Shown here piece after piece: positions 9,593 through 16,796 of a stretch of DNA of 40,965 nt; within the stretch, counting starts at the first letter, position 1, and every line of letters begins with the position of its first letter. The position numbers and the translations under genes were made by a program. The stretch lies in the UHGV virus genome UHGV-1351066, one strand, 5' to 3'. The stretch comes from a virus. The notes below the pieces were generated by a model. The model did not search any database, was not told the DNA's origin, and worked only from the letters and a program-made list of their open reading frames with translations.

Positions 9593-9793
9593 ATGCAACA
9601 CGAACTACAGCCTGATTCCCTGGTTGATTTGAAATTCATCATGGCTGATACTGGCTTTGGTAAAACCTTCATCTACGACCGGATTAAGTCCGGCGACCTG
9701 CCAAAAGCCAAAGTTATCCACGGACGAGCAAGATGGTTATATCGTGACCATTGTGAATTCAAAAATAAGCTCTTAAGCCGCGCCAATGGGTAA
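9593..9793 (+). CDS. xis: excisionase / AlpA-family HTH regulator
   Basis: 66 aa; AlpA-like small HTH protein directly upstream of int on the same strand. Confidence 0.6.
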   Translation: MQHELQPDSLVDLKFIMADTGFGKTFIYDRIKSGDLPKAKVIHGRARWLYRDHCEFKNKLLSRANG

Positions 9794-10042
9794 AATAGCG
9801 GGTAAAATATTTCTCACATCTAAAAAACACCATTCCAATCAATCCCCTGCTGCTTCAAGTAGATGTCTGCAGGGGACACCATTTATCAGTTCGCTCCCAT
9901 CCGTACCAGTCCGCAAAATCCCCTGAATATCAAGCCTTCCGTAGATTAACAGTTCGTAATGGTTCGCGTCAGATCGTTGACAGCCGCACTCCATGACGGG
10001 TAAAAAGTGGATAAAATAATTTTACCCACCGGATTTTTACCC
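9788..10042. repeat. GGGTAAAA / TTTTACCC motif cluster flanking the int start
   Basis: Direct copies at 9788-9796, 9800-9808 and 9998-10006; inverted copies at 10020-10027 and 10035-10042. Confidence 0.5.
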
Positions 10043-11200
10043 ATGCTCACCGTTAAGCAGATTGAAGCAGCAAAGCCGAAAGAAAAACCATACCGCCTTC
10101 TCGATGGTAATGGCCTGTACCTTTATATCCCTGTATCCGGGAAAAAGGTATGGCAGCTTCGCTACAAGATTGACGGTAAGGAGAAAATCCTGACCGTCGG
10201 AAAATATCCGCTTATGACTTTGCAAGAGGCAAGGGATAAAGCATGGACTGCGAGGAAAGACATCTCGGTTGGCATCGATCCGGTAAAGGCGAAAAAGGCT
10301 TCGTCTAACAACAATTCCTTTAGTGCGATTTACAAGGAATGGTACGAGCACAAGAAGCAAGTCTGGTCAGTAGGCTATGCAACTGAACTTGCCAAAATGT
10401 TTGATAACGACATTTTACCCATCATCGGCGGTCTTGAGATTCAGGATATTGAGCCGATGCAACTGTTGGAAGTAATCCGCAGATTTGAAGATCGCGGTGC
10501 AATGGAGCGAGCCAACAAAGCCCGCAGAAGATGCGGCGAGGTTTTCCGTTACGCTATTGTCACCGGAAGGGCTAAATATAACCCGGCACCTGACCTTGCA
10601 GACGCCATGAAAGGATACCGCAAGAAGAACTTCCCGTTTCTTCCTGCAGACCAGATCCCGGCATTTAACAAAGCACTGGCAACATTTTCAGGAAGTATCG
10701 TATCGCTCATTGCGACCAAAGTTTTACGCTACACAGCCCTCAGAACAAAAGAGCTTCGTTCCATGCTATGGAAGAACGTCGATTTTGAAAACAGGATTAT
10801 CACCATCGACGCCAATGTGATGAAGGGACGCAAGATTCATGTTGTTCCTATGTCAGACCAGGTGGTTGAACTTCTCACTACGCTAAGCTCCATCACTAAA
10901 CCAGTATCAGAGTTTGTTTTTGCCGGGCGCAACGATAAGAAGAAGCCAATCTGCGAGAACGCGGTATTGCTTGTGATTAAACAAATCGGCTATGAGGGTC
11001 TGGAAAGCGGTCACGGATTCAGGCATGAATTCAGCACGATTATGAACGAGCACGAATGGCCTGCTGACGCCATTGAAGTGCAACTTGCACATGCCAACGG
11101 CGGATCTGTGCGCGGAATTTACAACCATGCTCAGTATCTCGATAAACGCAGAGAAATGATGCAGTGGTGGGCGGACTGGCTTGATGAAAAGGTGGAGTGA
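10007..11200 (+). CDS. int: tyrosine integrase, P4-type
   Basis: N-terminal 'KPKEKPYRLLDGNGLYLYI' arm-binding domain and C-terminal 'HGFRHEF…' catalytic region; start may be ATG at 10043. Confidence 0.85.
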   Translation: MDKIILPTGFLPMLTVKQIEAAKPKEKPYRLLDGNGLYLYIPVSGKKVWQLRYKIDGKEKILTVGKYPLMTLQEARDKAWTARKDISVGIDPVKAKKASSNNNSFSAIYKEWYEHKKQVWSVGYATELAKMFDNDILPIIGGLEIQDIEPMQLLEVIRRFEDRGAMERANKARRRCGEVFRYAIVTGRAKYNPAPDLADAMKGYRKKNFPFLPADQIPAFNKALATFSGSIVSLIATKVLRYTALRTKELRSMLWKNVDFENRIITIDANVMKGRKIHVVPMSDQVVELLTTLSSITKPVSEFVFAGRNDKKKPICENAVLLVIKQIGYEGLESGHGFRHEFSTIMNEHEWPADAIEVQLAHANGGSVRGIYNHAQYLDKRREMMQWWADWLDEKVE

Positions 11201-11397
11201 TCCACCTTAACCACTATCGAAGAGCACAAAGCCTTGCAATCCAGTGCAAAGCTTTGTGTGTCTCAGTTTTGTTTCATAGGTAATCATGCGTTCACTACGA
11301 TGCAAGAATCCATACCAAATTTTATTTAAAACTCACAAATACACTAGATAAAAACAATCCCGCAGTTTTCATGCGGGATATACTGCATTTATTGCAA
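11201..11397. other. probable attP-containing region (between int and tailspike)
   Basis: No host genes separate int from the tailspike, so the window appears to be the phage form; inverted repeats at ~11226-11262; core not identified. Confidence 0.35.
11349..11379 (-). terminator. rho-independent terminator downstream of tailspike
   Basis: ATCCCGCA…TGCGGGAT 8-bp stem; T-run on minus strand. Confidence 0.65.
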
Positions 11398-13872
11398 CTA
11401 CATTGCCATTAATATAAACATAGCCAATTCGTCATAACGAATTCCGTAGCGTCCACCTGCTTTTTTTACAAGAATCATATTTCCTGTTTTATATTGAGAA
11501 TAAATTTTCTCACCTGTATCAGGATCTGTGCTCTCTTCAGTTATCACCTCTTCATCCCATACGTCTGGCCATTCATCGTAACACCAAAAAGCATATTGCT
11601 CAGGATTTAAACCATGTTTTCTAAGAATATCTCCTACGGTTTGAGCGCCAACTCCAAAATGATACCTTGATAACTCCAATCCTTTAAAATTAATCGACTC
11701 ATTAAACCTGAACTTGCATATAATTCCCTTTATTTCCAGCGCAGCATCACGCTCTGCCTGAGTAATGTCATATATTGTTTTAAGTGTTTCATCTGATGTG
11801 CTTATAGTCCCGGATGCAGAATAAATCTGAGCCCATCTAAATGATGGTGCACCAAGAGATTTGCTGTTATCAATAATTGGTGAAAAATTACCTTTAATGG
11901 CAATATTTCCAGAGTCGCCGAATATATTAATAACTGCAGAGTCATCACCATGGTTTTTTACGCTTAAGTTTCTTGATGAAATATTTATATCTTTGTTATA
12001 TCCACTAATATTAATCCATCTTTTACCATCAATGTGATACCCGTAAATATTTCCGTTTGATTGTTCGTTAGATGACTCTCTAAGAACAATAGCATCTACT
12101 CCAGACGACCATTGTATTTTTGTATCTGTAGGCCTCCAGTTCTTTATAATGAACGAACCATCAGTAAACTCCGTTTTTATTTGTCTATTGTCTACAAATG
12201 CGTCTCTTGGTTTAAACTCACTTGTGTTAACGCTGCTCTGAAGATCAGAAGCAAAAAATCTAAGATTTCCTGTATAACCCTGAGTCTCGGTCAGGTTATA
12301 CGCAATCATAATTCCATTTTCAAACTCAGATGATGTTATTTTAACATCACGGCAATCACCAAAAATGCAATTTCCTTTATCAAATGTTGTTTGAGCTTTG
12401 AATTTATCAAACCTTAAATTACGAACAGGGAAACCATCAACCTCTAATGCAAAGGATGCAGGAAGGCCAAAGTATTCTGATGGCTTACCTGATGTATGAT
12501 CAAGAGTAGTGGCTACTGTATTCTCAAAAACAGTCCCGCTAAAATTATTACCAATTGACGGAAACCTGATTACACTTATTGTACCTTGTATTTCAGGAGA
12601 AATACCAGATAGTGTGATGTTAGTTCCATCAAATGATGCATCTGAATACGTATATACTGATTCACTGCCAGCAATTTTAAACTGTTTAACTGAAGTTATT
12701 CTCATCGACTTTTTATGTTTAAATGTCACTGAGCTTTCAGTATTACTTACAAGATCAATCTGAGGGCTATTCCTTATCGCGATTCCTGACTGGACATAAA
12801 CGTTATTAAAGTGCGTTTTTTCAGGATTTCCCTTCATTGAAAGGCTCCCGTCATTTTCTGTCAGTAGTAGTCCTTTTACCCTCCAATAGCCGACAATCTG
12901 TACGTTATCAATAACTGAATCACAGCTATCGTATACATGCAACCCTATATCCCAGTTATCACCCAATGAATAAGAATCAGGGTTATTGTATCCTTCAATA
13001 CCATTTTTACTTACCATTATTCTCAGATTGCGTAACTGTGATGCCCTGTTGATACTAACAGCTACGCTCATGGCTTTTGGTGTAGCAGGAGTAACACCTA
13101 CAGAATCTTCATTCGTAAACTCAGTGAACTTACAAGATATCCCTTCAACAATTTTAACTGGTCTTTCATTAGAGATGTTAAAAAAATATTTGTTTTTTTC
13201 TCCATCACCAGTAAATACAAGATGGGTTCCTTTACTCCAACTTTTTAATAATCTTTCAGGCGCTGGTCTATATGTGTCCCAATAATCAATGCCAGATCCA
13301 ACCAGTGAACACCCCTCAGGAATGTTAATATTCTTCTTGATGATGCATATTCCTTCAGGAATTGTTATAACCGACCTTCCAGAGTTTAAAGCTTTAATAA
13401 AAGCATCTGAATCATCTGTTACCCCATCTATTTTTGCTCCCCACCCTCTAACATCTCCACAATCTCTCCATCGTGCCATCTGCAACTCAGGATATTTTTT
13501 AGCGCCATCTGGATCTTCTAATTGCGGCCGTAGCTGATCGGGGTCATACTTCAGCACATTAGGAAAATAGAACTGCTGCGCACCATACGCATCGTATACA
13601 GCCATAGAATGGCCTTGCACAGTTACGAACTTGGCAATCTGTCCGTTATATACCGGATATCCAGCAGCGTTAATGATGATTGGCTGCGAAACAGGAACGT
13701 GAGAACCGTCTTCATTCTCCACATAAACCTGAATCTGGTTTTCAGGATTTACCGGATCCGTGTCAATTTTACCGATATAAATTTTTCCATTGGCTACGGC
13801 TTTAAAAGAACGAGCCATAGTGAAGAGTTGCGAAGGCATACTCACTACAACATTGGCTGTAATGTCTGTCAT
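11398..13872 (-). CDS. tailspike: P22 gp9-like head-binding N-terminus, divergent receptor domain, C-terminal intramolecular chaperone (peptidase S74-like)
   Basis: N-terminal ~110 aa nearly collinear with P22 tailspike ('[11 protein letters not shown]…[11 protein letters not shown]…VLKYDPDQ'); C-terminal 'TSDETLKT…' resembles self-cleaving chaperone domains. Confidence 0.8.
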
Positions 13873-14008: not shown

Positions 14009-14031
14009 AAAAAAACCCAGCCGAAGCTGGG
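14009..14031 (-). terminator. rho-independent terminator downstream of ant
   Basis: CCCAGC-ttcg-GCTGGG then TTTTTTT on the minus strand. Confidence 0.7.
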
Positions 14032-14050
14032 TCGTTGCGTTGGTTATCTG

Positions 14051-14974
14051 TCAGTAGTTATGTACTGAAGGAGGTAATTCTTTATTCTTAAGTCTCATCC
14101 ATGCGGAAAGATTCGTTGGTCCGTCTGGCTCATTGATATCAACATCTCGTGTGTGGTTTATTAAAACGTCTCTCGCCATTCCGATAACATACGAGAATTC
14201 ATGACCGTAGTCGTAGCATCTGCCGGAATAGTTCGATTGAATTTGTTTTAATGCCGGATACAGTTCGCGGAATAATGCCTGTGAGCGGTTGGCATAATCC
14301 CATAGCCATACAAGGCTGTTTGCTTCTTTTGCAGAAAGCTCGTTGGTTTTCTTCTCTTGTTTGCCAATGAACTCACCTTCAAGCGGAACTCGAGCTGCAA
14401 GTGACAGTGCTTCGGTAAACTGCTCCTCACTGATTTCTTTGTATGAACATCCAAAATGGGATTTCAGTGACGACCACATGGTGATCATCGCCTTAGCCTG
14501 TTTTTCCTTTGGCAGAGACTGACCGCGACTCATGACGAGTTGTTTAATGGCTTCCTGCTGTTCAGTGGTGATTTTACCCGGCAACGCCTTTTTAGCTTTG
14601 CGTGGGTTAACTACATGGCCTTTAGTCCAGTACTCGTATAGCACATCGTCACACTCTTCTTGATACTGGATTACATTGTCGCGGATTTCAGGGCGGACTT
14701 TGTTAGGGCTGATGGTTTGCAACCAGCCATTCAGTTTACGTAAAGCAAGGCAAATCATGTTCTGCACACCGCCAACTGAAGGTATTGCGATTTCCACAAT
14801 ACCTTTAGCAAATCTTTGTTTTAACTTTGTAAACTGTGAAGCCCAATCCATACCCATTCCCTCAACGATAGGTTTCATTGGGGTGTACGGCTCACCGTTG
14901 TGATTGACAACATAAAGCTCTGCGCCGTGGAATGGTACATTGATAGTAGATACTGCTGTTGCTATACTTTTCAT
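14051..14974 (-). CDS. ant: antirepressor Ant
   Basis: 307 aa; N-terminus and position downstream of arc match P22 Ant. Confidence 0.75.
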   Translation of the reverse strand: MKSIATAVSTINVPFHGAELYVVNHNGEPYTPMKPIVEGMGMDWASQFTKLKQRFAKGIVEIAIPSVGGVQNMICLALRKLNGWLQTISPNKVRPEIRDNVIQYQEECDDVLYEYWTKGHVVNPRKAKKALPGKITTEQQEAIKQLVMSRGQSLPKEKQAKAMITMWSSLKSHFGCSYKEISEEQFTEALSLAARVPLEGEFIGKQEKKTNELSAKEANSLVWLWDYANRSQALFRELYPALKQIQSNYSGRCYDYGHEFSYVIGMARDVLINHTRDVDINEPDGPTNLSAWMRLKNKELPPSVHNY

Positions 14975-15792: not shown

Positions 15793-16392
15793 GTGATTGA
15801 GATAGGCGTTATGGCCATCCTGAATCAAGAGCCAGGAAAAATTGAAAACGTTTTTTCTGACATATCAACATCTATCGAGCGTTCAATTTCAGACTTTGAT
15901 CGCAGTCATAGCGGCTCTTTGTCTAAAAAACAGGCTTCTGAAGCTCTTAGCAAGATCTACTGCGTTATGTCACCTGTAGAGGAAGTTTGCAAAAAGTACA
16001 TTACATTCATTGACATATTAAGTAATGGTACGGAAGAAGATATTTCCTCACTTGATATTCAACATGACGATGTAGATATGTTGAACGATCAAATATCTAA
16101 GCTTGATTATGGTATCGCGAAACTGTTGTATACCTTCTTCATCGCTGAGAACAGCGATGCGTGGAAGCCCCATATGTCAACTCTTACAACAATGAAAAAC
16201 CACTCAATAAATACTTTTATAGAATACAAAAGGCTAACTATGGGGCTTGTGACGCTAGCAATGCAGCACATACCACTATCATATGCTGAACCTGAAGAGT
16301 TCACTGAAGAAGAGTTGGCTTCATTCAAGAAATCAGTTGAAGATTCACATAAAAGATTTGGCATGGAAGCACCAAAATGGAAAACCGCATAA
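15793..16392 (+). CDS. hypothetical protein (199 aa), first gene of accessory cassette at the sieA position
   Basis: GTG start after AAGG (or ATG at 15811); no recognised domain; 3' end overlaps the next gene by 16 nt. Confidence 0.55.
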   Translation: MIEIGVMAILNQEPGKIENVFSDISTSIERSISDFDRSHSGSLSKKQASEALSKIYCVMSPVEEVCKKYITFIDILSNGTEEDISSLDIQHDDVDMLNDQISKLDYGIAKLLYTFFIAENSDAWKPHMSTLTTMKNHSINTFIEYKRLTMGLVTLAMQHIPLSYAEPEEFTEEELASFKKSVEDSHKRFGMEAPKWKTA

Positions 16393-16796
16393 GCATTGTT
16401 GTAGATGCAGCGGCTGGACCATTAGAACAATACTTTGCGAAGGCTCTTGCAAACTACAAAAACAGAGGCACCGTTTCAGCTTATCTTGGTAAGATTGGTG
16501 GGTTTGAGAGAAACCATCACGCCGTCTTATCGGGAATTTACAAGTCGCACATCAGGATCCCTGGAGTAGATGATCCTTGGTTAAAAACAACGCCAATACA
16601 TCGTAGAGTTAGCGATAACTTTTTGATATTTGCGGTACACAACACATATCCAATTCATATCCAGATCATTGCTATCATTAAACCTGATGGTCATGAGAAG
16701 GTAAAAAAACTATTGCCAGCCATCATTGATATAACTGAAAAAAGATTCCAATCTCTAAATGAGAGGGAGCTTAACTCGTTGATTTCATACAAATAA
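16377..16796 (+). CDS. YafO-like toxin homologue (putative ribosome-dependent mRNA interferase)
   Basis: C-terminal core 'HIRIPGVDDPW…FLIFAVHNTYPIHIQIIAIIKPDGHEK' resembles E. coli YafO as recalled from memory. Confidence 0.5.
   Translation: MENRISIVVDAAAGPLEQYFAKALANYKNRGTVSAYLGKIGGFERNHHAVLSGIYKSHIRIPGVDDPWLKTTPIHRRVSDNFLIFAVHNTYPIHIQIIAIIKPDGHEKVKKLLPAIIDITEKRFQSLNERELNSLISYK

Follow-up and report, generated by a model that had tools for sequence, protein, structure and literature searches.

The closest described counterpart of the protein analysed here is the tailspike of CUS-3 (siaK1, ABQ88383), the K1-specific P22-like prophage of Escherichia coli RS218. This phage is the standard example of a capsule-degrading body, the K1 endosialidase, joined to a P22-type adaptor (review PMC5380687), and its tailspike ends in an intramolecular chaperone of the peptidase S74 type. 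The tailspikes P22 gp9, Sf6 gp14 and HK620 gp9, each the sole receptor-binding protein of a P22-like virion, are O-antigen endoglycosidases without an S74 chaperone; the folding of P22 gp9 relies on its own C-terminal domain (PMC3357383). In K1F endoNF, T5 pb1, phi29 gp12 and Kp7 gp51, an S74 chaperone forms the very C-terminus and follows an intertwined stalk. The gene under study encodes an 824-amino-acid (aa) tailspike and lies in the virus genome UHGV-1351066, a stretch of 40,965 nucleotides (nt) that is referred to as the window.

The protein follows the CUS-3 plan of adaptor, capsule-directed body and S74 chaperone. Identity between the two proteins is 88% over residues 1-163 and 34% in the chaperone region, where CUS-3 has the motif TSDGTLK. 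The two differ in the body: CUS-3 has a sialidase beta-propeller and stalk that act on polysialic acid (K1), whereas the present protein has a pectin-lyase-fold beta-helix without similarity to it, for which the K14 capsule is the predicted target. With P22 gp9, Sf6 gp14 and HK620 gp9 it shares the head-binding domain (about 72-94% identity) and the beta-helix fold class, but no sequence similarity past about residue 120. With the S74 chaperones listed above it has in common the fold, the C-terminal position and the pattern S-D-x-x-x-K, including aligned Ser and Lys, and also the Asp, Arg and Thr to which the proposed mechanism assigns a role; sequence identity to them is only 26-29%, however, a different mature domain is attached, and cleavage is a prediction in the present case.

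Because CUS-3 shares the three-part layout, the architecture is of a known kind and not new. It is also documented by many NCBI entries named 'phage tailspike protein' that combine PF09008 and PF13884; one further cluster of such tailspikes, P0072 (910 aa), has 264 members. The additions of this analysis are the prediction of K14 as the receptor and the coincidence of the self-cleavage motif with a recombination joint. The gene is read as encoding the only tailspike of a temperate podophage that is of P22 type, resembles CUS-3 and integrates at argW; from sequence comparison and genome statistics, the spike would be specific for the K14 capsule, probably as a depolymerase, and would carry a self-cleaving chaperone. 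The probability of this joint reading is put at about 0.72.

Association with the K14-type capsule locus

At 98% or higher nt identity, the tailspike gene is present in 20 of 5,426 complete E. coli genomes. The Prokaryotic Genome Annotation Pipeline (PGAP) labels these 98-99% identical genes 'phage tailspike protein', and 98-100% identical 824-aa proteins are present under the same name in NCBI (e.g., WP_214442692.1 and WP_137083037.1). The O-types of the lysogens were read from the PGAP family names of wzx and wzy, by which eight of the 20 were typed: three as O83, three as O15 (M160133, NCCP12480 and O15_8X), one as O5 (DP051) and one as O11 (EC17GD31). The closest lysogen is O83, and at least four O-types occur among the eight. 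Members of the protein cluster, which comprises 654 sequences, are also labelled O25b:H4-ST131 (sequence type 131).

These O-types bear on the possibility that the protein is an O-antigen-specific tailspike like those of P22, Sf6 and HK620 and that its association with a capsule is incidental. Of the P22-like tailspikes that have been characterised, the majority are O-antigen endoglycosidases (PMC10408124), and O83 and O15 are each enriched among the lysogens (P = 3e-4 and 6e-3, respectively). However, near-identical genes are shared by strains of all the O-types named, and only three of the 20 lysogens are O83. Seen from the side of the serogroups, the gene is present in only 3 of 35 O83 genomes and in three among the best 60 of 100 O15 matches, as opposed to 20 of 20 for the capsule locus described below. 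In addition, no gtr or oac O-antigen modification genes were found beside the tailspike gene, from which int is separated by 197 nt. The O-antigen was therefore rejected as the receptor, and an O-antigen-specific spike is regarded as highly improbable.

A survey of prophage receptor-binding proteins that span several serogroups suggested K antigens as a possible receptor (PMC10408124). Following this suggestion, and in view of the mixed O-types, the group 2 capsule locus was examined. In strain LR-60 this locus lies next to yghD/gspM and comprises kpsMT, a region 2 (galE, a 760-aa glycosyltransferase and a CatB-like O-acetyltransferase) and kpsSCUDEF. The same region 2 was found in 108 of the 5,426 genomes, all of them recovered through three re-ranked searches, and it falls into three allele classes of 31, 26 and 51. 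All 20 tailspike lysogens have this region 2 (hypergeometric P = 1.5e-35). Mixed O-types together with a uniform K14-type locus indicate that the capsule is the likely target. An earlier note, made from the sequence alone, had expected an O-antigen or capsule specificity different from that of P22, and this expectation is now sharpened to the capsule.

The K52 capsule had been considered as well, since O15:K52 and clonal group A share K52; it was dropped because the typing catalogue numbers K52-specific genes up to _13, against the three region-2 genes present here. The capsule region of JJ1886, which is among the region-2 genomes, has been labelled K14 (PMC10866875), and in the kTYPr K14 reference cluster gene 8 (K14_8) encodes a 761-residue glycosyltransferase at the same position (PMC13171606 supplement). 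On the basis of this label and of K14_8, the locus is typed as K14 rather than K52. Within the K14 locus (stretches L020, 398-1416, and L022, 3393-4382), galE is disrupted to a pseudogene by a frameshift in Combat2C1 and by an internal stop in JJ1886, but it is intact in LR-60, which agrees with the description of galE within kps clusters as redundant in the typing paper (PMC13171606).

The same body occurs in a second prophage family. An epsilon15/phiV10-like E. coli prophage encodes a 918-aa 'tail fiber domain-containing protein' (P0006 cluster, e.g., ESP37685.1) directly upstream of its holin, endolysin and spanin genes. The gene of this 918-aa variant is 98.9% identical to the tailspike gene over nt 579-2083 of the latter, corresponding to residues 194-694, and the body is ~100% identical at the aa level over residues 201-680. 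Both ends differ: the N-terminal adaptor is another one, the S74 domain is different and longer (161 versus 132 aa after the serine), and the prophage backbone is not the same. The variant is present in 13 complete genomes, 12 of which have K14 region 2 (P = 3e-20). Pooling both gene types gives 29 distinct genomes, of which 28 have the K14 locus (P = 1.5e-48).

Several points weigh against the proposed reading. The association test counts genomes as independent, and several of the lysogens are clonal (E50/E67/E57/E20, EM10-18-28 and W4); when the lysogens are counted conservatively as ~8 independent lineages, P is still ~2e-14. The K14 label comes from in silico typing in two papers and not from serology of these strains. 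One genome, GF43 (NZ_CP172127.1, 5034477-5037233), has the 918-aa variant at 99.3% identity without K14 region 2; a capsule switch or loss subsequent to lysogeny may account for this, or GF43 may be a genuine exception. Neither gene is present in 80 of the 108 K14 genomes, which is expected for a prophage and uninformative. As to the protein itself, NCBIfam models gave zero matches, and PF13884 (Peptidase_S74) matches residues 693-755 with 21.4 bits (E = 3e-4), 0.6 bits short of the gathering cut-off of 22. Finally, the nearest solved beta-helices are only 10-16% identical to the body, in which no catalytic residues are assignable, so that a hydrolase, a lyase and a non-enzymatic binder are indistinguishable.

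The clones among the lysogens, a phylogenetically clustered collection and association statistics that ignore phylogeny would also be compatible with a K14 link that arose by shared ancestry or lineage co-transfer, the true receptor being another surface structure that co-varies with K14 strains. Against this, the lysogens are spread over all three K14 allele classes and at least four O-types, their prophages occupy three or more integration sites, among them sbcB-dacD and argW, and the kps locus lies ~1 Mb away from the prophage. The second prophage family is unrelated to the first, carries the same body and shows the same association with K14. Shared ancestry or co-transfer is therefore considered unlikely, and the K14 capsule itself is preferred as the predicted receptor.

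Adaptor, body and chaperone modules

The head-binding profile PF09008 is matched over its full length by residues 1-113 (profile positions 1-113 of 113; E = 2.4e-67; 224.7 bits, the cut-off being 24). Sf6 gp14 (7sg7; E = 6.5e-66) gives a gap-free alignment with the N-terminus, as does, with a weaker score, P22 gp9 (8tvr/2xc1; E = 3e-51, about 1e-50). Similarity to P22 gp9 runs out near residue 116, which bears out the earlier note's description of the first ~110 aa as nearly collinear with gp9 and of the remainder as dissimilar. The N-terminal domain is 89-90% identical to that of Sf6 gp14, the structure of which has been solved in situ (7sg7), and this identity suggests that a trimer would dock onto the gp4/gp10 tail hub.

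The AlphaFold model gives a low predicted local distance difference test score (pLDDT) for the linker at residues 109-120. The segment that follows, up to residue 193, contains the motif DVRGWGAxxDGVTDD, and PF12708, a pectate-lyase-like beta-helix cap, matches residues 141-196 with 28.6 bits against a cut-off of 27. Similarity to CUS-3 extends into this segment, to residue 163, and at the nt level it covers nt 1-437 with 89% identity. The CUS-3 endosialidase tailspike retains a homologue of residues 121-163 (window 13384-13512; stretch L012, 3501-3989), including the neck/cap motif DVRGWGA..DGV.DD. That CUS-3 keeps a beta-helix neck and cap yet has no beta-helix body suggests that an ancestral tailspike of the kind described here acquired the endosialidase module by insertion.

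The body is a predicted right-handed parallel beta-helix of the pectin-lyase fold. The earlier note had called it unrelated to the body of P22 gp9; this is correct for the sequence, in which no similarity was found, but not for the structure, since both belong to the same fold class. Residues 120-824 match PHROG 1171, 'tail spike protein' (E = 6e-204). A label of 'colanic acid degradation' from PHROG 8280 was set aside, as that match comes mostly from the shared N-terminal domain; colanic acid also fails to explain the restricted distribution of the gene, the wca cluster being present in every E. coli examined.

The body might bind a polysaccharide and have no depolymerase activity. However, nearly all tailspikes with this fold on podophages of encapsulated or smooth hosts are enzymes (review PMC5380687). 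Many acidic residues of the body are at least 90% conserved, including D308, E339, E477, D498, D509 and E518, and sources annotate relatives as GH28-related. A body that only binds is accordingly judged unlikely, and a K14 depolymerase is the probable activity.

At the C-terminal end of the body, residues 650-692 match the last part of the endosialidase stalk profile PF12219 (positions 118-160 of 160; E = 5.6e-4), and the endosialidase 4hiz matches residues 646-683. In the monomer model, pLDDT falls below 50 for residues 674-690. A poor monomer model is what one would expect of this segment if its chains intertwine in the trimer, as those of the stalk end probably do.

The C-terminal 213 residues were compared with solved S74 chaperones by phmmer and matched Klebsiella phage Kp7 gp51 (7y5s, 4e-17), T5 pb1 (4uw8, 8e-13), Acinetobacter phage AS12 gp42 (6eu4, 1e-11), K1F endoNF (3gw6, 1e-10) and phi29 gp12 (3gud, 1e-6). 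A PF13884 call is present in precomputed annotation for most family relatives. The shortfall of PF13884 is a threshold issue and no argument against homology. For structural comparison, a separate model of residues 640-824 was used, since in a whole-protein Foldseek search the arbitrary domain orientation of the monomer model led to low template modelling (TM) scores. In the separate model, a monomer, pLDDT exceeds 95 over residues 699-824, and the model matches the S74 fold, which is characterised by a helical core and a long beta-hairpin 'tentacle'. The only matches in the Protein Data Bank below E = 0.1 were 3gw6 (4e-11), 4uw8 (1e-9), 3gud (TM 0.76) and the eukaryotic MyRF ICA domain; the rest were noise. 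Sequence comparison and structure prediction thus support the S74-type domain that the earlier note had proposed from the TSDETLK motif, although the chaperone comprises 132 aa and not the ~180 aa that had been supposed.

For T5 pb1, an autoproteolytic mechanism has been proposed in which Ser1264 is the nucleophile, Lys1269 activates this serine and Thr1263 precedes the scissile bond, while Arg1250 of the neighbouring chain and Asp1239 form the folding sensor and oxyanion site (PMC4690869). In a gap-free HMMER alignment, D668, R679, T692, S693 and K698 of the tailspike correspond to D1239, R1250, T1263, S1264 and K1269 of T5 pb1, respectively. S693 is also aligned to the nucleophile S911 of endoNF, which, like that of T5 pb1, was crystallised as a Ser-to-Ala mutant, and the lysine at position +5 is conserved as well. 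Among 62 family members, S693 and K698 are each conserved in 57, T692 in 55, and D668 and R679 each in 43. These residues point to autoproteolytic cleavage between T692 and S693, for which the computed masses of the products are 76.4 kDa (residues 1-692) and 15.3 kDa (residues 693-824).

If the C-terminal domain were not cleaved off, it would remain part of the mature spike and form a distal tip or a binding domain. The marginally sub-threshold Pfam score is compatible with such a domain, as is the restriction of D668 and R679 to 43 of the 62 relatives. However, all five mechanistic residues are present in the tailspike, and the fold matches only self-cleaving chaperones. Five relatives without the motif (P0062-P0066) stop 19-44 residues past its position and consist of the body with no S74 chaperone, indicating that this body type is apparently able to fold without the chaperone in some contexts. 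Furthermore, the 3' junction with the 918-aa variant lies exactly on the T-S-D motif, as would suit a module that is separable and dispensable. Retention is considered very unlikely, and removal by self-cleavage is the preferred prediction.

The positions of the junctions indicate that the mature body is one cassette and that the adaptor and the chaperone are two others. The gene is a three-part mosaic, each module of which is exchanged separately among phages. The N-terminal adaptors that precede homologues of the body and chaperone are of at least five kinds (PF09008, PF18668, PF03906, PF12571 and PF12236), and such adaptor swapping is the usual modularity of tailspikes. The G+C content is 43.8% in the adaptor, ~36.5% in the body and chaperone and ~50% in the phage late genes; the low value for the body and chaperone fits their import from a gene pool richer in AT. 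No K14-specific phage or depolymerase was found in the searchable literature, the coverage of which does not include older K-phage papers. The odds are about even that the body, residues 194-692, is the first phage protein defined by sequence that has a specificity for the K14 capsule of E. coli, probably a depolymerase of new linkage specificity, on a cassette that two unrelated temperate families share and whose junction falls exactly on the self-cleavage motif.

Taken as a mechanism, these features suggest the following sequence of events. The tailspike would trimerise, and residues 1-113 would dock the trimer to the tail hub as in P22 and Sf6. The 132 C-terminal residues would serve as an intramolecular chaperone, nucleating the fold of the intertwined C-terminal stalk. 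Ser693 and Lys698 would then cut the T692|S693 bond, with D668 and R679 of the neighbouring chain as a putative folding sensor; the chaperone would thereby remove itself, yielding a mature spike of 76 kDa and a released fragment of 15 kDa. On the host, the beta-helix body (about residues 130-660) would bind the K14 group 2 capsule, a polysaccharide containing 3-deoxy-D-manno-octulosonate (Kdo), and would probably cleave it, which may let the virion progress down to the outer membrane. The repeat unit of K14 consists of GalNAc and Kdo and is O-acetylated.

Phage backbone, integration site and flanking elements

The window is 100% identical to the circular-looking Logan contig SRR5597382_43 (run SRR5597382), whose 40,995 bp equal the window plus a 30-nt overlap, and it is an excised or circular form of the phage. 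When a 25-kb query (window 14000-38999) was used, 72% of it aligned to CUS-3, a Lederbergvirus, at 96% nt identity. The neighbouring genes encode a P22 gp16-like protein, Arc/Mnt and a P22 antirepressor. The features of the tailspike gene and its surroundings are listed in Table 1.

Table 1. Positions of the tailspike gene, its modules and adjacent elements in the window
Feature	Residues	Position	Strand	Basis or remark
Tailspike gene, 91.7-kDa precursor	1-824	11398..13872	-	ATG-to-stop open reading frame, same span as in the earlier note
P22/Sf6-type head-binding (virion adaptor) domain	1-113	13534..13872	-	PF09008
Flexible linker, helical neck and N-terminal beta-helix cap	114-193	13294..13533	-	AlphaFold (AF2) model, PF12708
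Receptor-binding beta-helix body with C-terminal stalk, to predicted mature C-terminus T692	194-692	11797..13293	-	Exchangeable specificity module
Stalk end, endosialidase-stalk-like, with D668 and R679	650-692	11797..11925	-	PF12219
Predicted autocleavage site T692-S693-D-E-T-L-K698, scissile bond T692|S693, Ser693-Lys698 dyad	692-698	11779..11799	-	Motif and alignment
Intramolecular chaperone of the peptidase S74 type (132 aa), predicted 15.3-kDa released fragment	693-824	11401..11796	-	phmmer, model
Terminator-like hairpin with T-run, 19 nt past the tailspike stop codon		11357..11379	-	Consensus scan, pattern match only
Terminator-like hairpin separating the tailspike gene from the antirepressor gene (14051..14974)		14014..14033	-	Consensus scan
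int		10007..11200	+	
xis-like open reading frame		9593..9793	+	
attP core		9867-9881		

A GGAG sequence is located 9 nt 5' of the tailspike ATG. The order of antirepressor gene, hairpin and tailspike gene resembles immI followed by gene 9 in P22. In the accessory region on the immI side, a 139-aa open reading frame (16377..16796, plus strand) has a match to the YafO toxin family PF13957 in a precomputed table for stretch L014; its CUS-3 counterpart is annotated as hypothetical.

Homology between the window and an integrated copy of the prophage (L013) ends at window position 9867, inside the tRNA-Arg(CCT) gene argW. This end places attP upstream of int, so that the tailspike gene and int remain adjacent in the argW prophage. 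An attP between int and the tailspike gene, as considered by analogy with lambda, was ruled out by the same observation.

The prophage of LR-60 has a different integrase and occupies the sbcB-dacD site. The DNA 3' of its tailspike gene still matches window 11140-11397 (stretch L001, 5743-6000), a match that takes in the final 60 nt of the argW-type int gene, indicating that the tailspike cassette moved between prophage backbones together with flanking DNA. The prophages at sbcB-dacD (LR-60 1815000-1864999, which is L003, and those in L004, L009 and L011) lie ~13-17 kb from the his/wzzB/gnd/O-antigen cluster, which is known as a hot spot of recombination. Beside near-identical prophage ends, four different O-clusters occurred. 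These prophages could mobilise or accompany O-antigen switches; lateral transduction is possible for P22-like phages (bioRxiv 10.64898/2026.05.19.726188).

Implications for K14 strains and their phages

K14 is among the K-types linked to invasive disease by extraintestinal pathogenic E. coli (PMC13171606), and the K14 locus is found in ST131, for example in JJ1886. The practical value of the present analysis lies in the receptor prediction, within an otherwise ordinary modular design already familiar from CUS-3 and K1F. Once cloned, a K14 binder or depolymerase could be of use in capsule typing, in stripping of the capsule as an anti-virulence measure and in the retargeting of therapeutic phages. 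Where a prophage tailspike is distributed across apparently inconsistent O-serogroups, a check of the kps locus can resolve the inconsistency. The conserved T-S-D cleavage motif also doubles as the joint at which body and chaperone recombine.

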